Shown in pieces: positions 2,183-28,166 of a DNA stretch of 62,411 bases. A model generated the notes under the pieces. That model was not told the origin of the DNA. It searched no databases and worked only from the letters and a program-made list of their open reading frames with translations. The stretch is taken from contig JBHLLJ010000003.1 of the NCBI GenBank assembly GCA_048885705.1, positions 1 through 62,411 of the forward strand. The letters are read 5' to 3'. Each line of letters starts with the position of its first letter. The first letter of the stretch is position 1. The translations under genes and the position numbers were made by a program. Origin of the DNA: Candidatus Hermodarchaeota archaeon. GTDB lineage: Archaea; Asgardarchaeota; Lokiarchaeia; Sigyniarchaeales; SOKP01.

Positions 2183-2749
2183 TTATGATTTAAGTTTTTT
2201 AAGTAAAAAAGCAAAATTTTTACCTAAATTTTTAAATGTTCTAATACCTTCCTCATCATCTAAGACTTCTCCTGGATTCCTTCCGATACCTAAGTTCCAG
2301 TAACTAGAACCCACTACAAACATCTGCTTTATTAAGAAAAAGTAATTTATACTGGAAAACACATGATTTGCACCAGCTCTCCTAACTGCTACAACTGCTG
2401 CACCAACTTTATGTTTTAAATGCCCTCCCGTAGCATATCCTGAACGTTCAATTAATGCCTTTGTACTTGTGGATAAATCTGAGAAAAATGTTGGCGATCC
2501 TATTATAATTCCATTGGCTTCAAGCATTTTTTGGATATATTCATTCATATTATCTCCTTCAATGGTACATCTTTGATCATCATTGTCTATGCATTGATAA
2601 CATGCAGTACAACCTTGTAATCGTTTATTACCAATCCATATTATTTCACATTCAATTCCCTCAGCTTTTAGTTCTTCCATAACAGTATTTAAACAATGGT
2701 ATGTGTTTCCTTCTTTTCTTGGACTTCCATTAAATAATACTACCTTCAT
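2183..2749 (-). CDS. flavodoxin-fold NAD(P)H-dependent FMN reductase / iron-sulfur flavoprotein (Isf-like)
   Basis: The N-terminus MKVVLFNGSPRKEGNT is typical of the family. It carries a compact Cys cluster CTACYQCIDNDDQRC (CX2CX2CX7C) as in archaeal iron-sulfur flavoproteins. Confidence 0.7.
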   Translation of the reverse strand: MKVVLFNGSPRKEGNTYHCLNTVMEELKAEGIECEIIWIGNKRLQGCTACYQCIDNDDQRCTIEGDNMNEYIQKMLEANGIIIGSPTFFSDLSTSTKALIERSGYATGGHLKHKVGAAVVAVRRAGANHVFSSINYFFLIKQMFVVGSSYWNLGIGRNPGEVLDDEEGIRTFKNLGKNFAFLLKKLKS

Positions 2750-2840
2750 TATTATAAACCTAAAAAATTATAATTACCAAATTATTTTTCAATAATTATT
2801 ACAACGCTTTTAAATTTTATAAAAAATACTTTAGTTTGTG

Positions 2841-3164
2841 TTATTCCAACCTTTCAATTTTAAATATTACTGGTCGGAACCAATCACTACATCCAGTAAT
2901 AACAGTACCTTTGGCTTTCATTCCCGGTATATTAGCCCCTGAAGCAATTGCTATTATATCATGCCGAATATCAGCCCACGCCCAGTGACAGAATCCCTCG
3001 GGTACCTTCCCGAGATTGTTATCAATTATTATTTCTTGGCCATCTTTAAATGCATCACATACTTTAATATCTTTTAAGCGGTCTTCTATATATTCATCAA
3101 TTAAGTCCTGATTTAACATTCTTTTTATTACAGTTATTTTACATTTTGGTATTTTGGAATTCAT
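2841..3164 (-). CDS. TIGR04076-family small conserved protein
   Basis: 107 aa with CDAFKDGQEIII...PEGFCHWAWADIRHDI...GCSDWFRPVIFKIERLE, matching the family pattern as I recall it. Confidence 0.7.
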   Translation of the reverse strand: MNSKIPKCKITVIKRMLNQDLIDEYIEDRLKDIKVCDAFKDGQEIIIDNNLGKVPEGFCHWAWADIRHDIIAIASGANIPGMKAKGTVITGCSDWFRPVIFKIERLE

Positions 3165-3253
3165 TTTTTGGTCTCCCTCACTTTAATAATTTTAAAATCA
3201 TTATTTTATATTGATATATGTTTAATTGTTTGTGAATAAATTTAATCTTTAAT

Positions 3254-4492
3254 ATGGAAGTTCGTCCAGAATTACTTGCACCTGTTCAAGAATGGAATAC
3301 ACTAAAAGTAATAAGTGGTATAGCAGATGCTATATATTTCGGTATAGACAAATATAATATGAGGCAAAAAGCAAGAAACTTTGAAAGGGAAGATTTAAGT
3401 AAAGTTTCTGAATTTTGTCATAATCAAAATCCACCAATAAAAGCATATTTAACCACAAACATTTTAATATATGATAAAGAATTACAAGATTTGGAAAAAC
3501 TGATTCTAGAAGCAAAAGATGCTCAAATTGATGCTATAATCGCTCATGATCTTGCTGCTATTAGAATAGCCAAAAGAAATAATATAAAATTTCATATCTC
3601 AACACAAGCTAATATTTCTAATATTGAAACTGCGAAATTTTTTGAGGAATATGGTGCTGAAAGGATAATATTAGCTAGGGAACTTTCATTAGAGCAAATA
3701 AAATTAATTAAACACCATCTTACAACTACTGAAATTGAATGCTTTGTTCATGGTTCAATGTGCACCTCAATTTCAGGGAGATGCTATCTTTCAGCCACCA
3801 TCTGTGAATCAGAAGTTTATTCAGCAAACAGAGGAAATTGTGTCCAACCTTGTCGCCGAGAATGGCGAGTTATTGATGATGAGACTAATGAATTCATTTA
3901 TGACGGTCAAATGTTTTTAAATGCTAAGGATCTTTGCATGATTGAATATATACCCGAACTTATTAACGCTAAAATAGATGCATTTAAGATAGAAGGAAGA
4001 ATGAAGGATGCTCTATATGTTAAAATAGTTACAGAATGTTATAGAGAAGCAATAGATAGCTATTTTAATGAATCCTATACCCAAGATAAGATAAATATAT
4101 GGTTGGAACGATTATCAAGTGTATATAATAGGGGTTTTCATACGGGTTTCTATTTCCAAAAACCAACTATAGAGGATATTGAACTAGGAAAAAGAGGAAA
4201 TGTTTCTCATTATAAAAAACATTACCTAGGTAAAATTCTTTCTTATGATAAAATTAGCAAATCTGCTAATGTTCTGTTAGAAAGTTTAGATTTCCCCTTA
4301 AAAGTTGGTGATGAAATTTTTATCATTGGACTTAATACTTCTGTCATTGAAACAATAAAAAAAATGATATATAAAGGAGAAAAAATTAAAAGTATAGTTA
4401 GAAAACGTTATAGTGACCCCATAAGGATTAATCTTCGTATTAATAAAGAGGTTGAAATGGATGATAAAATTTATGCATTGTACTTAAAATAA
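3254..4492 (+). CDS. peptidase U32 family protein (collagenase-like / RNA hydroxylation-associated family)
   Basis: 412 aa. It has ELLAP...ADAIYFG near the N-terminus, a Cys-rich core FVHGSMCTSISGRCYLS...NRGNCVQPCR, and a KIEGRMK motif. Confidence 0.8.
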   Translation: MEVRPELLAPVQEWNTLKVISGIADAIYFGIDKYNMRQKARNFEREDLSKVSEFCHNQNPPIKAYLTTNILIYDKELQDLEKLILEAKDAQIDAIIAHDLAAIRIAKRNNIKFHISTQANISNIETAKFFEEYGAERIILARELSLEQIKLIKHHLTTTEIECFVHGSMCTSISGRCYLSATICESEVYSANRGNCVQPCRREWRVIDDETNEFIYDGQMFLNAKDLCMIEYIPELINAKIDAFKIEGRMKDALYVKIVTECYREAIDSYFNESYTQDKINIWLERLSSVYNRGFHTGFYFQKPTIEDIELGKRGNVSHYKKHYLGKILSYDKISKSANVLLESLDFPLKVGDEIFIIGLNTSVIETIKKMIYKGEKIKSIVRKRYSDPIRINLRINKEVEMDDKIYALYLK

Positions 4493-13156: not shown

Positions 13157-14296
13157 CTATTTAAAATAAGAGATTAGTGTATTTTTGATCATCTCGAAAT
13201 GACCTAAATGCGTCTTCTCAAGATTATCAAGCGATTCGATAATTCCTAATTTTTCAATCCTTTCAGTAATATTGAAATATGGAGAATCCTTTAACTTTTT
13301 TACTAGTGCTTTATTTTTTTCAAGATTTTCTAATAAGAATTCCATTGGGTTTAATTTATGAGTTCCTAACATGGCTTGAATGATTGACATTAGCATTGCA
13401 TCGAAGGTGACTCTCAAGATTACTTCATGATCAAATTCCGATGATATAGGAAATAAGTATGATTTAAGCATAGATATAGATTCTTTAAATAGCCCTAAAG
13501 ATTCATTTCCTAATTTCTTTATTCGCTCATTATGAGCCCGGTTCTCAGATGCTCTTAAACATAAGGCGGAGACTGTTTGGTATTCTGCTACAAAATGAAT
13601 GAATCTGGCTTTTGCATTAAGGTAGGTATCTTTTGATTCTTCCTCATCAATAAGATCATCTAATTCATCCAAAGATTTTCTGAAATAAGAAGCAATATCG
13701 GAGAATTTTTGAGCAGCTCCTTCAAATTCTCCCCTTGATAATAAATTCAATGCTCTTTTTTCTTCTTGCTCATATAATTCATCAAATTTATGTATTTTCA
13801 TAACAGCTTTTAATATTAATCGTTTTCCTTCATCTTTTTTAATCTTAGAGCGCTCAAATGTTTGTCCTGCTTTTAAAAGTAGTATTGAAGATAAATTATT
13901 ATACTCATCTGGATCAGTTTCATATAAATATTCTGAAGCTTTCTGCCAAGATTCTCCTGCAGTCTCCCAGTCATGCATATTAAAAGAGAGATTTCCTAAT
14001 TGTATTAACAATTTAGCAGAAACCTCGTAAAGTTTTAATTCTTCAGTTTTTCTAATGATAGATTTTAATCTATAAACAGCTTGAATATTATTTTTAAATC
14101 TCGAGATTATTTGAGCTATTCTGATATATAATTGATCTAATTTAAGGTAACTGCCAAGATCAAGGTAGATAGAAGCTGCTTTTTCATAAATTTGGATTGC
14201 TTCATGTCCTTTCCCTTTGTCAGCAAGAGTTTCTGCTTGATCTATTAATCTTATAGCCTCTAACTCTTTCTCATCGTTATAATTATTATCTATCAT
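13157..14296 (-). CDS. TPR-like helical repeat protein, function unknown
   Basis: 379 aa, apparently all-helical, with repeated A/Y/L-rich pairs (EAIQIYEKAASIYLDLG, WETAGESWQKASEYL). Confidence 0.4.
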   Translation of the reverse strand: MIDNNYNDEKELEAIRLIDQAETLADKGKGHEAIQIYEKAASIYLDLGSYLKLDQLYIRIAQIISRFKNNIQAVYRLKSIIRKTEELKLYEVSAKLLIQLGNLSFNMHDWETAGESWQKASEYLYETDPDEYNNLSSILLLKAGQTFERSKIKKDEGKRLILKAVMKIHKFDELYEQEEKRALNLLSRGEFEGAAQKFSDIASYFRKSLDELDDLIDEEESKDTYLNAKARFIHFVAEYQTVSALCLRASENRAHNERIKKLGNESLGLFKESISMLKSYLFPISSEFDHEVILRVTFDAMLMSIIQAMLGTHKLNPMEFLLENLEKNKALVKKLKDSPYFNITERIEKLGIIESLDNLEKTHLGHFEMIKNTLISYFK

Positions 14297-14468
14297 TCTA
14301 AATTCTCCTTAACAATAAGCAATTCGTAAACAGATGATTTTTTTTTAAAATTTCAATACAATTAACTTTAACTTAATTAAGATATTAAAATCTTAGTATT
14401 AATAGCTTTTTATTCCAAAATTTATGTTCCTTTAAATCTTTGAATTAAAATTTTAACGCTTTGTGCTA

Positions 14469-15353
14469 TTAAAATTGCTTAAATAGTTTAATATTTCGAT
14501 TCTTTAATATATCTTTGAATGCTATTGATTGGTATGCAGAAGCAAATGATTCTTGAGCATCTTCAATTGCGCCATAAAAAATGAAGTTCGAAAACCATGT
14601 TACGATGAACATAATACTAGCTCTTCTATATTTGGTATGAAATTTAATATTTAACCGAGGAGAGGAATATTGAAAAAGAAAAAGATTAGGTGCCGTTCCA
14701 ACTGGAAGTCTCAATGATTTGCTAATTAATTGTTGAGTCTCTAAGATATGAGCCAAACTCTCTAAATTGATCACTCCTCCGTCAATCCATATTCTTTCAA
14801 CACCAATATTTTTTAATCCATCAATGATATTCTCATTATTAGGTTGATTTTTCTCTGTAAGATATGCATATCTCTGAGTAGAAGTCATATTATCTGAACC
14901 AAGAATTAGTAACACAACAGATTTTATTTTATTTTTCTGTAGTATTTCTATTTCTTTCTTATTTTTTAGATTCGAAATCGTATTATAAATGTATTGTTCA
15001 GGTTTTATTCCAGCTTCTTTTAAATATTCAATTCCTGCTATTCTTGATTCAAAGTTTCCACCTAAAATGAATGGAGGATTAAAATGTTCCAAATAAAATT
15101 CTAAATATTTTAACATAGATTCGGGGGTAGTAGCGGAAATTTCTACCAAATTAGGGATTTTATATTGATCTGATAACGAACGATGTGTTTCTATGCGTTT
15201 CAAAGCCTTTTGAGTATTAAACACCTCTGGTTTTTTTCTATCTACTATAGTTTCGTTCTGATAAAAAATTGTACCAATTAGAACAGGAGGTAATTCAAAA
15301 TGTCCTCGTGCTAATATTATATTCTCATAAGTATAATATTTAGTATCTTCCAT
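14469..15353 (-). CDS. MtrH-like (tetrahydromethanopterin S-methyltransferase subunit H family) methyltransferase
   Basis: PPVLIGTIFYQNETIV, YIYNTISN and LRLPVGTAP parallel the MtrH motifs (GTIFY, IYNSI, LPVGSG) recalled from methanogen MtrH. Confidence 0.6.
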   Translation of the reverse strand: MEDTKYYTYENIILARGHFELPPVLIGTIFYQNETIVDRKKPEVFNTQKALKRIETHRSLSDQYKIPNLVEISATTPESMLKYLEFYLEHFNPPFILGGNFESRIAGIEYLKEAGIKPEQYIYNTISNLKNKKEIEILQKNKIKSVVLLILGSDNMTSTQRYAYLTEKNQPNNENIIDGLKNIGVERIWIDGGVINLESLAHILETQQLISKSLRLPVGTAPNLFLFQYSSPRLNIKFHTKYRRASIMFIVTWFSNFIFYGAIEDAQESFASAYQSIAFKDILKNRNIKLFKQF

Positions 15354-15541
15354 CTTTAGACCAACTTAAAAATTTGATATTTAAAATAGGAATGAAAAAT
15401 TATTTAATCTGCTTAATTTTTCCAGAAGATAACTATTTTTCTAAACTTTTTTTAACTAATGTCAAGATTATATGTTTGGAGACTATTAATTATTTAAGAA
15501 TTTGTAAAATAATCTCAAAAATAATAAAAACATTGATCAAA

Positions 15542-15796
15542 ATGGATGATGAAACCATATCACAAGTTAATGTAGCAGCCTATTATCTGGCAGAAAAAGG
15601 ATATGCTTATGATAAACTCTGCTGGATGTTAGCAGAAAGGCAACTTTTCGTTCAAAAAGACCCAAAATATAAAGATGAAAATAGGATAAGAGAAAAGGCA
15701 GCAGAAATATTTTTTTCTGGCCCAGCTTACGATATTTTGTGTTATTTAATTTCAGAAATAGATATTATGCTAAGATTAAGTAAAAGTCGTAAATGA
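15542..15796 (+). CDS. hypothetical small protein
   Basis: This is the internal ATG of track ORF 15374..15796. The upstream 56 codons are low-complexity I/K/L-rich sequence inside a promoter-like AT-rich spacer. Confidence 0.3.
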   Translation: MDDETISQVNVAAYYLAEKGYAYDKLCWMLAERQLFVQKDPKYKDENRIREKAAEIFFSGPAYDILCYLISEIDIMLRLSKSRK

Positions 15797-15798
15797 AA

Positions 15799-17004
15799 TC
15801 AATAAAGGTGCAACTTATAATCACAACTTTTACAATGACCTTCAATTAACTTTTTAAAACATTCCTCATGATAGAGGGTACTACATTGAGGATTTCCACA
15901 TTGAACTGCTGGTTGACCTTCTTCAAAAATCAGATGACAAATCGGGCAAGCATTAAAAAGAGCTTCTTCTCCTAATGTCTTAACGTCATTGATATATTTT
16001 GCGGGTACTAGATCAGGTTTCTGAATTGGTTCTTCTTTTAATCCCGCTGTAAGAACTCTTAATTTTTGAATTTGAGATACTTCTATAGGAATCTTTAGAA
16101 GGTAGAAACAATGTGGGCATCTAGCAGTTCCAGATCTTTTTACTTGGTGATTCTTTTGAGAGTCTGCCCATGCTGCTAAACAATGAATATGAAAAGGAGT
16201 AGCACAATTTGGACAATACCTCCCTGTTACATAAAAAGACCCTTTTGTATACGGATTTTGATCAGAAAAACAAATTGAACATTTCTTAAAATCTACCTCT
16301 CCCCTAATCTCTTTTGCCCGTTGTTCTTGATCTTTTGTTAAATCTTGAACTCTCAATAAACTCGCTGCAATTTTTCTAAGAAAAGCTGGATTTTCTATAA
16401 GTACTTCTTTCTTGGATCCATATGTTTTGTAATTATCATCTGCAATTTCTTTTGCTGCCCTATTTAACGATTCATAATCATTACTATAAAAATACCGACC
16501 ACCTGTGATATCACTGATTTTCTTTAGAACATTATCTTGTCTCGCATTTCCAAGACCAAAAGTATCAATTCTGATGTTTAATCCTTGAGCTAAGCGTGCC
16601 ATTTTTATGGGATCAACAACAGACTTTAAATAATTTCCATCAGAAATCAAAACTATTCTTGGAGTTTTAGCACCGACTTTGCGTAATTCACCTATTAGAG
16701 TTTTGATTGACAAAGCTAAGGCATCACCCATCGCTGAATATCCCCCACAATTCAATGAATTCAAGGCTTCATTAAGGCTATTTTCGAAACTAGCAGTTGT
16801 AAAGTCTATTATCTTTTCCGGTTCATTAGAATATTTTATTAACGCAAAAGCACTTAAACTATCTAAATTAAATCTTTCCTTTATCAATGTTTTAGCAGCA
16901 GATATGCAACAATTTAGTCGATTAGGACTAAAGTCCTTTCTAAACATTGATCTTGACGTGTCTATGCAGATGACAAGATTTTCTGGAATTCTATTTTCGG
17001 ACAT
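15799..17004 (-). CDS. von Willebrand factor A domain protein with two C-terminal C4HC3 (PHD/RING-variant-like) zinc fingers
   Basis: MIDAS motif VICIDTSRSM (DxSxS). Finger 1 is CSIC-x18-CPNC-x4-H-x2-C-x20-CPHC and includes FHIHCLAAW. Finger 2 is CPIC-x12-C-x4-C-x4-H-x2-C-x8-CKSC. Confidence 0.7.
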   Translation of the reverse strand: MSENRIPENLVICIDTSRSMFRKDFSPNRLNCCISAAKTLIKERFNLDSLSAFALIKYSNEPEKIIDFTTASFENSLNEALNSLNCGGYSAMGDALALSIKTLIGELRKVGAKTPRIVLISDGNYLKSVVDPIKMARLAQGLNIRIDTFGLGNARQDNVLKKISDITGGRYFYSNDYESLNRAAKEIADDNYKTYGSKKEVLIENPAFLRKIAASLLRVQDLTKDQEQRAKEIRGEVDFKKCSICFSDQNPYTKGSFYVTGRYCPNCATPFHIHCLAAWADSQKNHQVKRSGTARCPHCFYLLKIPIEVSQIQKLRVLTAGLKEEPIQKPDLVPAKYINDVKTLGEEALFNACPICHLIFEEGQPAVQCGNPQCSTLYHEECFKKLIEGHCKSCDYKLHLY

Positions 17005-17223: not shown

Positions 17224-18432
17224 ATGTCAGAAAATAGTAGTAAAAATGTAGCTATTAAGGATTTCTTTAAAAGGAATGTTCTAATCAATGAACTTGAGGA
17301 GGTTTTAAGGTTCAAACCAGATACACTAATAGGTGTTGATACAGTTAGTTCTGAACATTTAATTAATGAAGGTATAAAGAGCATTAATGATTTAGCTAAC
17401 TTATCTGCCTCAAATCTGCCAGAAATAAAAGAAATACTACCAAATATGCTACTAAAATGGGTGAAGATTGCCCAAGTAATCCAAAAAAATGTACAGGAAC
17501 AACTTCGTCGCCACAAAAAGATCCTAATGATTGGTTTGGATGCAGCAGGTAAAACGTCTATTCTTGCAGTAGTTCAAGATAAATTTTCAATAATTAAATC
17601 TCTTCTTCCGACAAGAGGTGTCAAAAGGGAAAAATTAGACTTTTTCGGTTATCCAGTAATCTCGTGGGACCTTGGTGGACAAGTACAATATAGAGAGAAA
17701 CTTTACTTCAATCGACCTGAACTTTTCTTTACAGAAGCAGATATAATGATATATGTTATCGATACGCAAGATCCAGATAGAATTCCTGAAGCTGCCAATT
17801 ACTTTCGTGAAGTTTTAAAGGTATTAGTAGATTTACATGAGAAGCCTAAAGTTTTAATTGTTTTAAGCAAAAGTGATCAAGATATACGGAAAACTCTACA
17901 ATGGCAACAAAATGTCACCAGTATTAAAAATAAATTTAACAGTATTACAGATGATTTTGAGGATTTTGAAGTCGATTATTGCGATACTACGGTGTTTCAA
18001 TGGGAAACTATTATGCAAATGTTCAGTGTTGCACTAAAGAAAGTTTCTGATACTTCTGAAATAATTGAACATATACTTGAAGAGTTTACGCATCAAGTTG
18101 ATGCAAAAGCATCGAGTTTAGTATCGATGGATGGATTAATCTTCGGTAGTTTTACTGGTTCAGATACAGATGAAATGCTTGTAAATAACACAGCTTTATT
18201 GCTCCAAACTCTTTCGAACTTTTATAATTCAATTGGATTAATTAGAGAAAGATCAATAAAATTAGAGTTACCTCTTAATGGTTTTACCATTCGAGGAGAA
18301 AAACTATTTGAGTATTCAGAATTACAGATACCAGTATATCTATGGATGCTCTCACAGAATCCGAATCTAATAGAGGGAAAAATTGACTATTTTAAAGAAC
18401 AATTACTCCCATTGATTAATTTATTCTTATAA
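17224..18432 (+). CDS. Arf-family-like small GTPase with N-terminal HhH-like segment and C-terminal Roadblock/LC7-like domain
   Basis: G1 is GLDAAGKTS (Arf signature), G3 is WDLGGQ, and G4 is the variant SKSD. The C-terminal SSLVSMDGLIFGSF...IKLELPLNGFTIRGEKL resembles the Roadblock/MglB pattern. Confidence 0.7.
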   Translation: MSENSSKNVAIKDFFKRNVLINELEEVLRFKPDTLIGVDTVSSEHLINEGIKSINDLANLSASNLPEIKEILPNMLLKWVKIAQVIQKNVQEQLRRHKKILMIGLDAAGKTSILAVVQDKFSIIKSLLPTRGVKREKLDFFGYPVISWDLGGQVQYREKLYFNRPELFFTEADIMIYVIDTQDPDRIPEAANYFREVLKVLVDLHEKPKVLIVLSKSDQDIRKTLQWQQNVTSIKNKFNSITDDFEDFEVDYCDTTVFQWETIMQMFSVALKKVSDTSEIIEHILEEFTHQVDAKASSLVSMDGLIFGSFTGSDTDEMLVNNTALLLQTLSNFYNSIGLIRERSIKLELPLNGFTIRGEKLFEYSELQIPVYLWMLSQNPNLIEGKIDYFKEQLLPLINLFL

Positions 18433-20220: not shown

Positions 20221-22569
20221 TTAGGTTCGACACAATCTCTTTAAAAGTGTTGGATCTACTATTTCTTTTGGTTTCCAACCTTTTTGTTTAAGATATTCTT
20301 GAATTTCATCTTTCATATTAATTGGGATGTCTGCTTCAAGGCGAACGAATTTTTCTAAATCATTTGGGAATTTAACGCCCTTATATTTGCGTTCTAAATC
20401 AATCCAATGGGATAATTTTATCATTCGTCCTTTAGAGTTGTCCGCGGGTCTTAATGCTAATTTAGCAACTAAACAGATAGCTTGTTCGATACTTTCTGCT
20501 GTTGTTAAAAGATGTTCTGGTCCGGGACCTATAATGTGCCCTTCAGAACCATCTCTTGCATTAAATACTTTCCAATTATCCTCATCATCAGATCTACCAA
20601 TATACATTCTTCGATATTCAGCCGCATGAGGTCCTACAACTGCTGGGACTCCTAAACCATTAGCCATACTTGCTATACTTGCAGCCTTTTGGGACATTGC
20701 TCCCCAAGCTACTCCAACAGCACCTACCCTATTTAATATATAATCTGCGATTTCTTCAAAATTCCCCCGTAATGGGCGCCTTGCGAAAATATTCGCAACT
20801 TTAATTGCTGCACCGGTAATATGAGGGTTAGCAACGCATGATCCAACATTAACTAAACCTCCTCGATCGAAATCCCCCGGAAACCGATCATATAAGGTTT
20901 TACCTTCCTCATCTTTTACAAGACCTATATCCATCGCTCCACAGCCTGAAACTACTACAATATAGTTCCTAACCAGGAATTCCTCGGCCATTTTATACAA
21001 TTCCTGAATCTCATGGGCATAATTACCACAACCAATAATTGCAACTATTCCTGGAATTTCTCCTAAGACAATAGGAGCTCCTACATTTCGTATTTCTGTA
21101 TCTTGAATTGGACCTCTACCAGCTCGGCAATTATATTTTTCTGTTTTTATGTACTCACGACCTGCATATTGGATTAATGTCAATGGTGAAACGTTCTTCA
21201 TACAATCAGATTCGCATCTACCACATCCTAAACAATCATGGAAAATTCCTTCTAAAACAGAAAAATCCGCATCTTTAGCTAAATTGATACCTTCTACAAG
21301 TGGTAGATCATTCGGACAGTTTCTCTGACAGTTACCACAACCATTACAGTTCATAGCCATATCTTGACAGCCTTTTTCATCTGGAACACCACTTTTTCCT
21401 TTTCGAATTGGTTTGATTTTAATTGCTGTTTCAGCAGCAACTTCACCAGCTTTTATCGGATCTAAGATTAAAACTCCATCCATCTTTCCACTGACTAAAT
21501 CATTTACTATTTCCATCATTGGATCATCTGTTCTGTCTGGAAATCCACCCATTATCTTTTCATTAGTAGTTATATAAGGTGCTCCCACCGCCTTAGCTTC
21601 CTCATAAGTTCTTAGATTTACACATTGTTCATCAACCATAACTACATCTGCTAAACCAGACCGAATATAATGTAGTTGCCTTGAATAAGACCCAATAATT
21701 TTTGCTGCTGAATAATATCGTGTAAGATCATGAGATGTACAACAAATTGCACCTACATCAACTTTATCTTCATACCCTTTTTCTCTTATATAATCTACTA
21801 ATTCAACTCCCGGTGCTACATTGTGCCCAATCATTAATATTATTGCTTTATTTTCAGTGTCCATAGTACCCATTCCTAATTCTACAATTGGAACATTAGG
21901 ATCTCCTATAGGCATACCATATGCGCAAATTTGAACTGCATCTGAAATTTCCATTCCTACTGAATCACATAAACCAGCTAAGAAACTTTTTGATTCATAA
22001 TCAAGATAACTCGATTCTTGCCCTGTATGACCAGCTGCTAATAATTGAGTAAGAGTATAATGAACCCACTCCATTGCTGTCTCCAAGTCTTCTAAACTCT
22101 CAGGTTTCATACCAAGAACTAAACGAGTGTGTGGCATTTCTACAGCAATGTTATTTCCAAAATTGATTGGAACATTCCCATATTTCTCTTTTAACCAATG
22201 AAGTAGATGGTCTCCGTGAGCAGAGTGACACGCCGCTCCAATGCAACATGCAATTTCTACAATCCTAGCTTGCTGTGTCTCCATATTTATACCGCAAGCC
22301 CCTGTCCGCCCTTTAGAGAGATTACATTTACCATATGTACATAAGCAACACATATCACAGATGGGCATATAAAACGGTTTATATCGTTCCATTAACTTGA
22401 AAAACCAAGATCTTAGATCTCTAAGTCCGGGAGCAGGATGAGGACCCATAGGCTCCCATTCTGTCTCATCACCGTAAGATATCTTCCCAGTTGTTAATTC
22501 AAATCCTTTAATTGTACCAAGTGGACCTTTATATTCATCAATTTTTACTTTTGCTCCTCTCTTTTCCAA
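20221..22569 (-). CDS. cdhA: CO dehydrogenase/acetyl-CoA synthase complex alpha subunit (archaeal CdhA type)
   Basis: 782 aa. The N-terminal Cys cluster is PICDMCCLCTYGKCNL. Two inserted ferredoxin-type motifs, CNGCGNCQRNCP and CLGCGRCESDC, are typical of archaeal CdhA. TTG start. Confidence 0.85.
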   Translation of the reverse strand: MEKRGAKVKIDEYKGPLGTIKGFELTTGKISYGDETEWEPMGPHPAPGLRDLRSWFFKLMERYKPFYMPICDMCCLCTYGKCNLSKGRTGACGINMETQQARIVEIACCIGAACHSAHGDHLLHWLKEKYGNVPINFGNNIAVEMPHTRLVLGMKPESLEDLETAMEWVHYTLTQLLAAGHTGQESSYLDYESKSFLAGLCDSVGMEISDAVQICAYGMPIGDPNVPIVELGMGTMDTENKAIILMIGHNVAPGVELVDYIREKGYEDKVDVGAICCTSHDLTRYYSAAKIIGSYSRQLHYIRSGLADVVMVDEQCVNLRTYEEAKAVGAPYITTNEKIMGGFPDRTDDPMMEIVNDLVSGKMDGVLILDPIKAGEVAAETAIKIKPIRKGKSGVPDEKGCQDMAMNCNGCGNCQRNCPNDLPLVEGINLAKDADFSVLEGIFHDCLGCGRCESDCMKNVSPLTLIQYAGREYIKTEKYNCRAGRGPIQDTEIRNVGAPIVLGEIPGIVAIIGCGNYAHEIQELYKMAEEFLVRNYIVVVSGCGAMDIGLVKDEEGKTLYDRFPGDFDRGGLVNVGSCVANPHITGAAIKVANIFARRPLRGNFEEIADYILNRVGAVGVAWGAMSQKAASIASMANGLGVPAVVGPHAAEYRRMYIGRSDDEDNWKVFNARDGSEGHIIGPGPEHLLTTAESIEQAICLVAKLALRPADNSKGRMIKLSHWIDLERKYKGVKFPNDLEKFVRLEADIPINMKDEIQEYLKQKGWKPKEIVDPTLLKRLCRT

Positions 22570-22822: not shown

Positions 22823-23410
22823 TTAAAGAGTGGATAAAAATTCTGATACAGATTCTTCTGAATCAACTAAACTATCATCAAAGGATTCTCCAATTAATTC
22901 AAATTTGAAAACATCTCTTTCGTGCCCTAAAAGAACGCACTCTATCTCTTCAGCATTAACATCGATTTTTAAACTTTCAAACATGCCACTAAAAAGTCCT
23001 TGATAAAGTAAACATAAATTTTTTCCCATAACGTTTTCTCGTTCTTCAGAAGCCAAAGAATCTGTAACTGTAATTAAAAGATGATCTTTTTTAAAGTGGC
23101 CTGTTAATTCTCCAAATCCCATAAGTTCTAATGCTTCGAGGTTTCCAAGAACTACTTCTTTTCTCGTTGCCATTGTTTCTTTACTCCAATCTTTATTATA
23201 AAAGAATTTATCCACGTAGTTACGTCCAATAGTTTTTCCGACCCATATTAAAATATCATCTGCATTTGTACCAGCGAATTCAGAGAATTCGATTAAATCT
23301 ATTGGCCTTAACATTAATAAACGTAAATCTTTTTTTTTATCACCGAAGTACAATTGACCTGTTTTTTCATCAATCATAATTTGTAATTCTTTTTTAAGTC
23401 TTTTCGACAT
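22823..23410 (-). CDS. V4R (4-vinyl reductase / Bet3-TRAPP-fold) domain protein
   Basis: MGFGELTGHF...ITVTDSLASEE...NLCLLYQGLFSGMF...AEEIECVLLGHERDVFKFEL matches the V4R pattern (GwG..v.v.ns.e....C....G...G.....E..C...G...C.f.i) as I recall it. Confidence 0.65.
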   Translation of the reverse strand: MSKRLKKELQIMIDEKTGQLYFGDKKKDLRLLMLRPIDLIEFSEFAGTNADDILIWVGKTIGRNYVDKFFYNKDWSKETMATRKEVVLGNLEALELMGFGELTGHFKKDHLLITVTDSLASEERENVMGKNLCLLYQGLFSGMFESLKIDVNAEEIECVLLGHERDVFKFELIGESFDDSLVDSEESVSEFLSTL

Positions 23411-23576
23411 CAGTTATCCCTTATTTGCTCCTTTCTAAAGAGAATTATAAAGTATTATAATTATATAATAGAAATTTAAACTGCTAGATATTTAAATTTA
23501 ATGTTTAAAACATCAAATCTTAATATTTTGTGAATTTTGAGTGTTTTTTGGTTATTATCGTATAAGGCGTAAGAAT

Positions 23577-24575
23577 TTAGGAAGTTAGCAGATCAAAGAT
23601 CTCTGGTATTATCTTATCTATATTAAAATTAGTTTTTACTGAAGTAAATAGGAATTTCCATTTTCTATTTTTTATATTTCTGAAGTTAAAATAATTAGAG
23701 AGTTCTTTTTCTAATTTTTGAAATTCAATCTCGTATTCTTCTTTAGAACCTTTTGTTAAATCAATTTTATTACCTAAAATAAGCAACGGGATGCTATCTA
23801 ATTCTTCTTTGTTTATTACATTCCAAAACTCATGTTTTGATTCCTCAAATCTTCTCTGATTAGCAATGTCAATCATGTAAATAATGATATTAGAGTCTTG
23901 AAATCCTATTAACCATTTTGGTCGAAATGATCTCTGTCCAGGCATATCCCAGACTGCTAATAACCCCTCCTCTTTTATTGGGAGATATTCGATATTAAAT
24001 TTCCTGGTTGGAGTAAAAAAATTTTCATTAAATTTCCCCGTCTTTAATCGTCTAACTAGACTCGATTTTCCTACTTCATCAATTCCAAATAAAAAAACTT
24101 TGAAGAATGTTTCTCTTTGAAAGTAATAGTCAAACTCATAAGGTTTTTCGATTACTTCATCACCGAACCTTCGAATATCAATAAAGATTGAAATTAATAA
24201 ATTATCGACTTCCAATTCGTCATCGAAGGAATAGCCATTACCATTGTTTAACAGTTCATTCAATAATTCTTTAAATATTTCCTTATAGTCATAAGGATTA
24301 TCTTCATCATCAAAAATAAGGCCTATTATAATTTTACCGTTAATACAACAAGTATACATATTTAATTCATTAAGAAATTGTGCAATAGGCTCATGAATTA
24401 CATATTGAACCGAATTTGGTAAATGAGAATATTCTTCTTTATCATGCTCTTTTATTATATTATTAACAAGTCTTTTATCTTTAATACTGATAATTTCATG
24501 AGGATAACTATAGATATTAAGATCTTCTAAATCACAGATTTTATTTCCTTTAAACAAAAAGATGTTATGTAGCAA
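23577..24575 (-). CDS. Ras-superfamily (Arf/Rab-like) small GTPase with about 160-aa N-terminal extension domain
   Basis: G1 is GIDEVGKSS, G3 is WDMPGQ, G4 is GNKIDL, and G5-like is TSVKT. The N-terminal domain is unassigned. TTG start. Confidence 0.75.
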   Translation of the reverse strand: MLHNIFLFKGNKICDLEDLNIYSYPHEIISIKDKRLVNNIIKEHDKEEYSHLPNSVQYVIHEPIAQFLNELNMYTCCINGKIIIGLIFDDEDNPYDYKEIFKELLNELLNNGNGYSFDDELEVDNLLISIFIDIRRFGDEVIEKPYEFDYYFQRETFFKVFLFGIDEVGKSSLVRRLKTGKFNENFFTPTRKFNIEYLPIKEEGLLAVWDMPGQRSFRPKWLIGFQDSNIIIYMIDIANQRRFEESKHEFWNVINKEELDSIPLLILGNKIDLTKGSKEEYEIEFQKLEKELSNYFNFRNIKNRKWKFLFTSVKTNFNIDKIIPEIFDLLTS

Positions 24576-24756
24576 TTATTTTTCCAGAAATCTTAATTCC
24601 TATATGTTTCAAAATAAAAGGAAATTAAAAAACGTTTGGAATCTTTCCAATTTTATATCCTTTTAAAGTTTTCTGTTTAATATATAAAAGAAATTGAATT
24701 TTTTGATATTTTCAAAAAAATTGAATATATCAGAATAAAATAGTTATATTATTCTA

Positions 24757-26202
24757 TTATTGATCTTCTTTTTCTTCACTTACTTCTGTTGAAGATTCTT
24801 CACTTGGTTCCTCTTTCTCATCTTCTATGGATTTTTGATCTGGTTCTGGTTTAGGTTGTTCAGTTGATTCTGGAGATGTTTCTTCACTAAGTTCTAAATC
24901 TGGCTTAGCTCCTACAGGAGTCTCACAAACAGGACATCGATTCCATCCGGGTCTCAAACTATATCCACATTTAACACATTCCTTAAGATTCTCATCTACT
25001 TCCCATTCAGGTATATCCAATCCTCCTTGTCTCTTCCTTGCTAACTCTTGTAATTCTTCTTCCGTCCAAACTTCCATTCCCTCAGGCAAACCAGATCCTC
25101 GTTCAGCAGTGAATTTGGCTAATTCTTCTTCTGACCAAGTGGGCATATCAGGTTGAGCACTCATTCTTTTTTGTGCTTCTTCAGCTAGCTCTTCAGCTGT
25201 CCAGCTTTTTAATTCTTGCCCTCCTGGAGTTCTAACTGTGTCCGCTTGTTGAGGTGCTGCTTGCGAGGGAACTTGAGGTTGTCGCGAGGGAACATTACAA
25301 CTTTCAGCAGAAAATTTTAAAAGAGCTTCAAAGCATCTTGAATATTTACTTGGATCTTTTCCTTCATCTGTTACTAATATTAAAGTGGTTTTATCTGCGG
25401 GTTGGGGTACTGCTATACTGTTAACTGCAATATCAGAACTAATTCGTTCTGATTCGACACCTGAAATGGTTTTTTCCATTGAATTCATTAATTCGTCATC
25501 TTTCATTAAAAAATCGCAAATGGGGTCACCATGTCGTTGATAACTTTCATGATATTTTGCTAGATGGTTTTGCATCATTGTTGAATCTAAAGAATCAATA
25601 ATAGCACTGACATAAGGATAAAGTTGAGATTTTGGCCCCTTTATGGAATCATCTAGTTTGTATCCACCTAAATCAAGTGCTCCCATTACAGGAGCAAATA
25701 AAGGTTTCTCATTTCGTATTTTTCCAAATATAGTCGATCTTGAAAGAACGCATTTAATTTCCCCATAGTATGCAATCGAATTATCTAAAAGTTCTACTTT
25801 TTTATCAAATACTATGCGAGGAATAGTCCGAAATAAAACATCGACCCAAGGCATTTCCTTTACAGGAATTATTGCTACACATGTCTTTTCAATTAATTCT
25901 TTTAACTTTTTGAGATAATTTTTTAACTCTTTCTTTATATCTTCATATTCTTCATTTTCTAACTCCTCATTTGCTTTCTTCTCAAGTTCTTTGAATTTTT
26001 CCTCATTTAATTTTATGTTTCCTCCAAACGATTTAATTTCCCCTACAATATTATCCTTCATGATTATAGTTGCTTTTTCAACCACATCTTTCTGAAAATT
26101 TGAAAGTTCTTGTTCTTCACTGGAGACTAAGAAATCAACGGGATCAAATTCTAACTTGTTTACAAACACTTGAAAAAGCTTTTTTAAAACAGTATCAGAC
26201 AA
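24757..26202 (-). CDS. hypothetical protein with three W-acidic repeats, a zinc ribbon and an acidic tail
   Basis: The repeats are SWTAEELAEEAQKR, TWSEEELAKFTAER and VWTEEELQELARKR, plus IPEWEVDE. The Zn ribbon is CVKCGYSLRPGWNRCPVC. The C-terminus is E/S-rich. TTG start. Confidence 0.5.
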   Translation of the reverse strand: MSDTVLKKLFQVFVNKLEFDPVDFLVSSEEQELSNFQKDVVEKATIIMKDNIVGEIKSFGGNIKLNEEKFKELEKKANEELENEEYEDIKKELKNYLKKLKELIEKTCVAIIPVKEMPWVDVLFRTIPRIVFDKKVELLDNSIAYYGEIKCVLSRSTIFGKIRNEKPLFAPVMGALDLGGYKLDDSIKGPKSQLYPYVSAIIDSLDSTMMQNHLAKYHESYQRHGDPICDFLMKDDELMNSMEKTISGVESERISSDIAVNSIAVPQPADKTTLILVTDEGKDPSKYSRCFEALLKFSAESCNVPSRQPQVPSQAAPQQADTVRTPGGQELKSWTAEELAEEAQKRMSAQPDMPTWSEEELAKFTAERGSGLPEGMEVWTEEELQELARKRQGGLDIPEWEVDENLKECVKCGYSLRPGWNRCPVCETPVGAKPDLELSEETSPESTEQPKPEPDQKSIEDEKEEPSEESSTEVSEEKEDQ

Positions 26203-27386: not shown

Positions 27387-27875
27387 AACATAGTATCCTC
27401 ATTATTTAATTCTAATGATAAAAAAATTTAATCTAAAAATATATTATAGTAGAATTTTTCTTAAACATTTAGTTATTTAAATTGAAAAATTGCATATGAT
27501 TATTTAAATAAGTAAACAATTTTACGGATTTTAAAGATATTTTATAGATCTTTTCAATTATTTATATCATAATTTAAATACTTGTTCATACAACTTTATA
27601 TAATAGTATAAACTTCAAAAATATCCTTAAAATTGAGGAGTATAGAAACATTTTAAGAATTAATGCATTAATATACTATCTGGAATATTTAAGACATGAC
27701 AATTAAGTATTTCTTTAAATATATTAATCCAATAAAAAAAAACATTTATATAGTAATGTGTAATAAAATAACTTATAAAAAAATTTGTGGTTTAAGGCGG
27801 TAGTAGTAAAAAAAGCTTTAGTCTATTTGCCGATTTTTGAATGTGGTATATTTATGGAAAAAAAAGTGGGTTAAA

Positions 27876-28166
27876 ATGAAAATAGTAACAGTTAACATTC
27901 CTGAATCATATCTCGACAGTATAGAAAAATTAGTAGGAGAAACAGGACTATATCCATCCAGATCCGAGTTAATAAGAGTAGCTGTTCGGGATTTCCTTCT
28001 CAAAGAACTAAAAATGGCTAATAATTTGGTCAAATATAAAGAGGCTGAAATTGAGGAATTTGATGATGAGAATTACGTAAGGGTACCAATTGAGAAATTA
28101 AATGACAAAGATGAACCAGTACGTGAATTTAAGACATACAAAATTATTAAACGATTAGAATATTAA
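27876..28166 (+). CDS. ribbon-helix-helix (CopG family) DNA-binding protein
   Basis: MKIVTVNIPESYLDSIEKLVGETGLYPSRSELIRVAVRDFL is a textbook RHH. I chose the internal ATG at 27876 instead of the track start at 27837. Confidence 0.6.
   Translation: MKIVTVNIPESYLDSIEKLVGETGLYPSRSELIRVAVRDFLLKELKMANNLVKYKEAEIEEFDDENYVRVPIEKLNDKDEPVREFKTYKIIKRLEY

Follow-up and report, generated by a model that had tools for sequence, protein, structure and literature searches.

This study focused on three consecutive, co-oriented genes on the minus strand of a 62,411-nucleotide (nt) stretch of DNA, here called the window, which is contig JBHLLJ010000003.1 of assembly GCA_048885705.1 (C3 in our set) from a Candidatus Hermodarchaeota archaeon of the class Lokiarchaeia. 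In the order of transcription they encode a zinc-ribbon protein of 481 amino acids (aa), termed ZnR481, a small GTPase with an additional N-terminal domain, and a protein with a V4R domain. The same order, on one strand, was found in 52 of the 56 informative loci of the family to which the source genome belongs and, to judge from the sequences, the GTPase and V4R genes are genuine and strongly constrained. We propose, as a tentative reading that may well be correct but falls somewhat short of being probable, that the trio is a functional module, in which a GTPase switch carries its own longin platform, the V4R protein is a partner that senses a ligand or redox state, and the zinc-ribbon protein serves as scaffold or effector. 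The parts are of known kinds, but their fixed neighbourhood is unreported so far as the searchable literature shows. Also new is a second V4R gene, flanked by two Rab-like GTPase genes as part of an array that is conserved across the order. A sequence-only reading of the window had described two open reading frames (ORFs) on one strand, separated by a 166-nt spacer, the first specifying a Ras-superfamily GTPase with an extra N-terminal domain; frames, spacer and coordinates were all borne out, the motifs it quoted are all in the translation, and the GTPase proved to be Arf-like.

Conservation of the three-gene neighbourhood

A search with the N-terminal domain of the GTPase over 400 genomes of the phylum matched 137, all of them from one order, to which the three families considered here (f1, that of the source genome, f2 and f3) belong. 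By family, the domain was present in 124 of 134 f1 genomes, in the single f2 genome (1/1), and in 11 of 14 f3 genomes, the last family taking in Ca. Harpocratesius repetitus and a complete genome of 6.04 Mb. For synteny, 70 loci were fetched and the neighbouring genes were placed by tblastn. Within f1, the order ZnR481, GTPase, V4R held in 11 of 12 informative genera and down to 34-37% identity, 37% in the case of V4R, so that the adjacency from which a GTPase-regulator pair had been proposed is conserved in this family. In five loci (L039, L050, L063, L064, L069) the flanking cdhA gene, for the alpha subunit of CO dehydrogenase, was inverted or displaced, and the trio was intact.

These data also have to be weighed against the possibility that the region has been little rearranged and its gene order simply inherited, without any coupling, the V4R protein being an independent sensor of small molecules or redox state and the partners of the GTPase being encoded elsewhere. 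This explanation is on the unlikely side but carries real weight. That the trio has outlasted five independent cdhA rearrangements speaks against it; on the other hand cdhA, a Rag-like GTPase gene, and a 2-hydroxyacid dehydrogenase gene are also often kept nearby, and since these unrelated neighbours are conserved as well, part of the collinearity is plain inherited synteny.

Several further observations likewise favour inheritance without coupling and weigh against a module. Four f1 loci (L013, L023, L024, L043) have no adjacent V4R gene, and these genomes retain the gene at another site with no GTPase gene beside it. None of the 12 GTPase loci of f2 and f3 had a V4R or ZnR481 gene inside 6 kb, and in three complete genomes (G135, G138, G143) neither a V4R protein of this type nor ZnR481 was found. 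One f3 genome (G132) has all three protein families, but dispersed over three loci. The adjacency of GTPase and V4R genes is limited to one family. In favour of a module, V4R and ZnR481 go together, both being present in f1 and in G132, and neither found in the three complete genomes just mentioned. As regards the relocated V4R genes, three of the four, from one genus (L072, L073, L074), were seen to occupy one shared new site, between genes for a CxxCxxCC zinc/iron-chelating-domain protein and a 300-aa membrane protein (L072:433-1137 and 2589-3506).

Ten f1 genomes are without the GTPase; nine of these are also without the V4R gene, and in the other it is cut by a contig end. The five that were checked for ZnR481 all lacked it, and because cdhA was not found in four of these five either, the joint absence of the trio is weak evidence, which again does not help the case for a module. 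It probably reflects, for the most part, an unassembled region, and G170 alone shows cdhA in a different context without the trio. An argument from co-loss for functional linkage was dropped, a missing assembly region being simpler.

Another reading, very improbable, is that the V4R protein serves the downstream cdhA, for instance by sensing gas, redox state or metals or as a maturation factor, and that the GTPase lies next to it incidentally. In most genera cdhA does trail V4R on the same strand, and the V4R protein has a weak NCBIfam match to the redox-sensing MsvR. However, V4R remains with the GTPase in the five loci where cdhA is inverted or moved, cdhA remains by the GTPase where V4R has moved (L013, L024), and the cdhA of G170 lies elsewhere without V4R.

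The spacers between the genes were aligned for 27 sequences from the genus of the source genome. Across the genus, GTPase-V4R spacers measured 139-166 nt and ZnR481-GTPase spacers mostly 146-185 nt. Both have a core with conservation of 80% or more, which in the GTPase-V4R spacer extends over some 100 nt upstream of the V4R start, and each of the two cores holds a TATA-like box with TAAAC ahead of it; in the window, each core occurs once (Table 1). The short or overlapping junctions and single promoter of an operon were not seen, the junctions being 166 and 181 nt with TATA-like cores of their own. Long spacers of this kind make co-transcription unlikely, a further point against a module, and a promoter-like core for each gene is what would be expected of synteny inherited without coupling. 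To go by these elements, there are probably three separate promoters, with the ZnR481, GTPase and V4R genes forming separate transcription units.

The GTPase and its N-terminal domain

By its database matches the GTPase carries an Arf-like G domain. The Pfam Arf family matched aa 151-320 (E 5e-31, 107.9 bits against a cut-off of 22.3), and the G1, G3, and G4 motifs are GIDEVGKSS (aa 164-172), WDMPGQ (209-214), which retains the catalytic Gln, and NKID (269-272). There were 461 database relatives, all Asgard-named, with a mean column identity of 75% in the 37 that were aligned. Among PDB chain sequences Arl3 was the best match (3e-23), followed by Arl8 and Arf, while the crystallised Asgard ArfR proteins (8oun, 8oul) matched at 3e-16, below the eukaryotic Arl3 and Arl8; the ESM Atlas clusters closest to the GTPase model were eukaryotic Arl8B, Arl3, and Arl2. 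In the ArfR GTPases (HodArfR1/GerdArfR1, PDB 8OUK-8OUN; Vargova et al., bioRxiv 10.1101/2024.02.28.582541) an amphipathic N-terminal helix binds the membrane, whereas the present GTPase has no Arf-type amphipathic helix at its N-terminus and carries, at that position, a folded domain, conserved and about 145 aa long, composed of strands and helices. It differs also in that Arl3 and Arl8 outscore ArfR, a comparison by pairwise scores only.

The N-terminal domain had been described as novel and unassigned, with longin offered as a guess. It did escape sequence tools: there was no Pfam or NCBIfam match to aa 1-150, and in a Pfam-A scan of 27 members with E up to 10 the domain drew scattered chance matches only, none of longin type. 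A profile search against PDB sequences returned only CtpB (E 0.15), the Longin profile (PF13774) was not found in the source genome, and the NPR2 profile (PF06218) gave one sub-threshold match across 41 genomes. A phmmer search of 1.84 billion cluster representatives matched 24 clusters, the significant ones being fragments or proteins of the same architecture. A protein-atlas feature search gave Asgard hypothetical clusters with scores of 0.80-0.86, which is chance level, including one with Pfam NPR2 on 19% of its members at a chance-level 0.80-0.82, and in structure searches of the PDB and the atlas with the whole model the matches were filled by the G domain. Asgard longin domains often lie beyond the reach of sequence detection.

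The domain is conserved to the same degree as the G domain, with DNPYDY and FIDIRR near-invariant within f1, and P94, D96, and R135 invariant throughout the order. The AlphaFold2 (AF2) model of the GTPase had a predicted local distance difference test score (pLDDT) of 72.6, mostly 56-84 in the N-terminal block, and a predicted template modelling score (pTM) of 0.53. In it, strands are predicted at residues 2-9, 21-24, 64-68, 71-78, and 82-88 and helices at 34-45, 94-109, and 120-141, together with a short additional helix at 13-18, between the first two strands. The resulting order in the predicted secondary structure (strand-strand-helix-strand-strand-strand-helix-helix) is that of longin, which makes this a probable longin domain. 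The assignment comes solely from predicted secondary structure, and this too tells against the module. The domain is, then, unassigned by sequence tools but not of a novel kind, because the longin-Arf-like architecture had already been published, and the guess at longin fits both the predicted topology and the published fusions in Lokiarchaeum (PMC4917890, PMC10933270). Klinger et al. 2016, cited in PMC4917890, counted five longin-like domains in fusion with Arf-like GTPases of Lokiarchaeum, and longin-GTPase architectures of MK-D1 were modelled by Tran et al. 2024 (PMC10933270). The present protein belongs to the same phylum as these longin-fused Arf-like and Rag-like GTPases of Lokiarchaeia and has the same architecture, with a longin-type N-terminal domain ahead of an Arf-like G domain; but those papers, in what they say of the fusions, name no partner genes, whereas here there is a fixed V4R and zinc-ribbon neighbourhood across a whole family.

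Longin domains can also act directly on Arf or Rag GTPases, as they do in the GTPase-activating protein (GAP) complexes FLCN-FNIP, GATOR1 NPRL2-NPRL3, and C9orf72-SMCR8, and Asgard homologues of these complexes have been proposed (PMC12290439). A longin-GAP role of the FLCN/NPRL2/SMCR8 type was considered for the N-terminal domain, but the GP motif of the loop between strands 1 and 2 (PMC12290439) is absent. In none of the 37 and 27 aligned sequences does this loop, which reads G10-N/K-K/E, contain Gly-Pro, and the conserved R135 and R136 sit in the last helix.

The V4R protein and the proposed module

The identification of the smaller protein as a V4R protein was confirmed by fold search, although its Pfam score is under the curated cut-off: V4R (PF02830) matched aa 129-171 with E 3.7e-6 and 27.3 bits, against a cut-off of 31. 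Many of its close relatives carry a precomputed PF02830 match, and there were 579 database relatives in all, with 83% mean column identity in 36 aligned. The model (pLDDT 76, pTM 0.74) combines three short strands at the N-terminus with two long helices and a sheet of four strands. It was compared with 48,161 PDB representatives by VIA-align, and the Z scores were 12.2 for PoxR, 11.9 for both MJ1460 and DmpR, 11.5 for TRAPPC5, 11.4 for BcsD, 11.3 for Trs31, 10.7 for H-NOX, 10.2 for Thor-TRAPPC3, and 10.0 for Bet3. As the leading scores are tied within about 1 Z, and Foldseek concurs, the modelled V4R/Bet3/H-NOX fold of this 195-aa protein is certain, with no preference for Bet3.

From its sequence features and model, the protein resembles an effector-sensing domain of the XylR/DmpR type that stands alone. 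The pattern C133-x21-E155-x2-C158-x7-C166, a putative metal site, is conserved across f1 (residue 166 is Asp in the source genome and its closest kin), and its spacing equals that of the Cys-Glu-Cys-Cys zinc site of XylR (C149/E172/C175/C183). It shares this spacing, and an N-terminal strand segment, with the sensor domains of XylR, DmpR and PoxR, and in fold it is nearest to PoxR, MJ1460 (PDB 2OSO) and DmpR. It differs from the regulators XylR, DmpR, MopR and PoxR in standing alone, without an AAA+ or DNA-binding output domain, and from these and MJ1460 in showing no sequence-level match, in having Asp as the last zinc ligand in the source genome, and in its tail, which is acidic and ends in an invariant VSEFLSTL (the tail is absent in one genus). 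A search with the V4R profile against PDB sequences gave no match to PoxR, MopR, or Bet3, and a Pfam-A scan of the protein at E up to 0.01 found V4R alone, and no Bet3.

The sequence-only reading had linked this protein to the Bet3-type subunits of TRAPP. The shared fold stands, but there is no Pfam Bet3 match, and the sensors PoxR, MJ1460, and DmpR score as high or higher. A related idea is that of a forerunner of TRAPP, in which a Bet3-like V4R dimer and the fused longin domain, comparable to Bet5 or Trs23, would make up a minimal exchange factor acting on the attached G domain or on another GTPase. Both folds of the TRAPP core are encoded at the locus, the adjacency is conserved throughout the family, and a longin-TRAPPC3 fusion from Heimdall has been reported by Tran et al. 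(PMC10933270). In eukaryotic TRAPP (Bet3/TRAPPC3, Trs31, and Trs33 with the longin proteins Bet5, Trs23, and Trs20; compare also Thor-TRAPPC3, PDB 7YH2/7YH3), however, the longin proteins are separate subunits, while here longin domain and GTPase form a single protein, and the GTPase is Arf-like rather than Rab-like. The XylR/PoxR-like zinc site of the V4R protein and the strand segment that it has at the N-terminus in common with sensor domains argue in the same direction, as does the lack of the pairing in the sister family and in other Asgard classes, from which it follows that it is not an ancestral Asgard feature. TRAPP itself acts on Rab1 and Rab11, not on Arf-type GTPases. An exchange factor of this kind is improbable, and the proposal is not supported.

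The third member of the trio, ZnR481, has a conserved N-terminal domain of 300 aa, a Q/P linker, three acidic W-x-EEL repeats, a zinc ribbon, and an acidic tail. Pfam gave weak zinc-ribbon matches only, and none of the 376 relatives has a Pfam domain over the N-terminal part. Judged by these searches the N-terminal domain matches no family, and the protein is an orphan. None of the PADLOC defence models matched ZnR481, the GTPase, or the V4R protein. Near ZnR481 in the window lies a gene whose 109-aa product has a ribbon-helix-helix-like N-terminus; homologues were seen beside the unlinked ZnR481 homologue of G132 (L166:580-972, minus strand) and at L043:9038-9340 (plus strand), and it is possible that ZnR481 is paired with this small DNA-binding protein.

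The module proposed at the outset would consist of three separately promoted, co-inherited genes of one family. The GTPase would act as a nucleotide switch, in which the longin-type domain would stand in for the membrane-anchoring amphipathic helix of an Arf-like GTPase. Longin and roadblock domains serve as dimerisation and docking platforms of Rag, Rab, and MglA GTPases, and by analogy the fused longin domain may be a built-in platform for dimerisation or partner docking. The V4R protein would bind a small molecule or sense redox or metal state, and would pass the sensed state to the switch, or else be recruited by the GTPase; ZnR481 would be a scaffold or effector. What was observed is domain make-up, conservation, collinearity across the family, and promoter-like cores; that the trio proteins touch one another and influence nucleotide state is inferred. 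A complex prediction for GTPase and V4R, each supplied with its alignment, reached a score of 0.00, the mark being 0.32, and counts neither way. A more specific version, speculative and decidedly improbable, is a ligand-gated Arf-type switch, in which the zinc-site V4R would sense a metabolite or redox state, dock on the longin domain, possibly via the VSEFLSTL tail, and drive exchange, with the zinc-ribbon protein as effector; V4R and longin would then form a minimal exchange platform, of the sort from which TRAPP later developed.

V4R genes beside other GTPases, and implications

The association of V4R and GTPase genes is not confined to the trio. The source genome (G000), which is 3.4 Mb in length and 93% complete, yields 91 matches with the Arf profile, to which small GTPases of every kind respond, and just two Pfam V4R matches, and both V4R genes adjoin GTPase genes. 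With 91 GTPase matches in 3.4 Mb, such adjacency is unlikely by chance, which counts against inherited synteny without coupling and in favour of a module. The second V4R gene has a 159-aa product with four Cys and weak DUF2507 and V4R matches, and is part of a tight five-gene array (Table 1). The order GTPase, thioredoxin-like protein, V4R holds in f1 and f3, three complete genomes included; in the single f2 genome the three genes are adjacent, in another order. In G132 (L071:992-3028), two V4R-like ORFs in tandem, on the strand of a gene for a 199-aa small GTPase (Pfam Arf/Ras) and directly downstream of it, are related to the V4R of the window and represent a third, independent adjacency. 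The GTPases beside the two V4R genes of the source genome and beside the G132 relative belong to three different subfamilies, a pattern that inheritance without coupling does not readily explain.

As a general feature of Asgard archaea the adjacency did not hold up. Among stand-alone V4R genes of other Asgard families, a GTPase gene was within 4 kb in four of 20 loci, compared to one of 20 control windows; with so small a sample no enrichment and no general rule are claimed, and the result adds to the case against a module. The association is a trait of particular V4R lineages of this order, not of V4R in general. As a separate observation, the match to the second V4R in five genomes was about 30-40 nt longer than usual and contained one in-frame TAA (Table 1); an insertion, a recoding site, or a lesion common to the five are possible explanations.

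As to the surroundings of the trio, the window is AT-rich (G+C about 29%), and the 20 public sequencing runs that contain the stretch are, every one, from sediment or soil DNA. The cdhA gene stands alone, with no further cdh genes close by. The Gtr1/RagA-like GTPase bears an N-terminal extension of about 95 aa and also a C-terminal one, and in many f1 genera its gene remains a few kb or less from the trio.

Table 1. Features of the trio and its surroundings, and the second V4R array and its variants; positions refer to the window unless a locus or contig is named.
Feature	Position	Strand	Length	Remarks
ZnR481 gene	24757-26202	-	481 aa	ORF, third trio member
Spacer ZnR481-GTPase	24576-24756	-	181 nt	conserved core with TATA-like box (24659-24679)
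Arf-like GTPase gene	23577-24575	-	332 aa	TTG start
GTPase N-terminal domain	24141-24575	-	aa 1 to ~145	longin-type predicted topology
Arf-like G domain	23577-24125	-	aa 151-332
Spacer GTPase-V4R	23411-23576	-	166 nt	conserved core with TATA-like box (23486-23507)
V4R protein gene	22823-23410	-	195 aa	ATG start
cdhA (CO dehydrogenase alpha subunit, Prismane family)	20221-22569	-		253 nt past V4R gene
Gtr1/RagA-like GTPase gene	17224-18432	+	402 aa	Pfam E 6e-22
109-aa protein, ribbon-helix-helix-like N-terminus	27837-28166	+	109 aa	~1.6 kb from ZnR481
Second V4R array	L076:4727-6778 (contig C69, about 13700-15800)	+		Ras/Rab-like GTPase, thioredoxin-like, V4R, Ras/Rab-like GTPase, TBP
TAA-bearing second V4R	G242:C273:6201-6716
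TAA-bearing second V4R	G254:C113:20628-21143
TAA-bearing second V4R	G270:C53:9870-10385
TAA-bearing second V4R	G267:C13:42562-43077
TAA-bearing second V4R	G168:C148:2903-3409

Asgard genomes encode approximately 100 small GTPases each, and how these are paired with regulators is an open question. In MK-D1, Tran et al. 2024 (PMC10933270) had little help from genome layout in this respect. They state that the GTPase genes of MK-D1 do not, as a rule, share operons with those for roadblock, longin, or TRAPPC3 proteins, a result that also accords with synteny inherited without coupling. Operon analysis of Loki GTPases was named as an open question by Dey et al. The trio and the order-wide array of Rab-like GTPase, thioredoxin-like, and V4R genes name concrete pairs for tests of binding, ligand sensing, and exchange or GAP activity. 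If there is no coupling, conserved adjacency would be a poor guide to GTPase partners in these genomes. If the module is real, it would give an archaeal Arf-type switch its first native regulator, and would bear on whether the combination of V4R and longin found in TRAPP predates eukaryotes.

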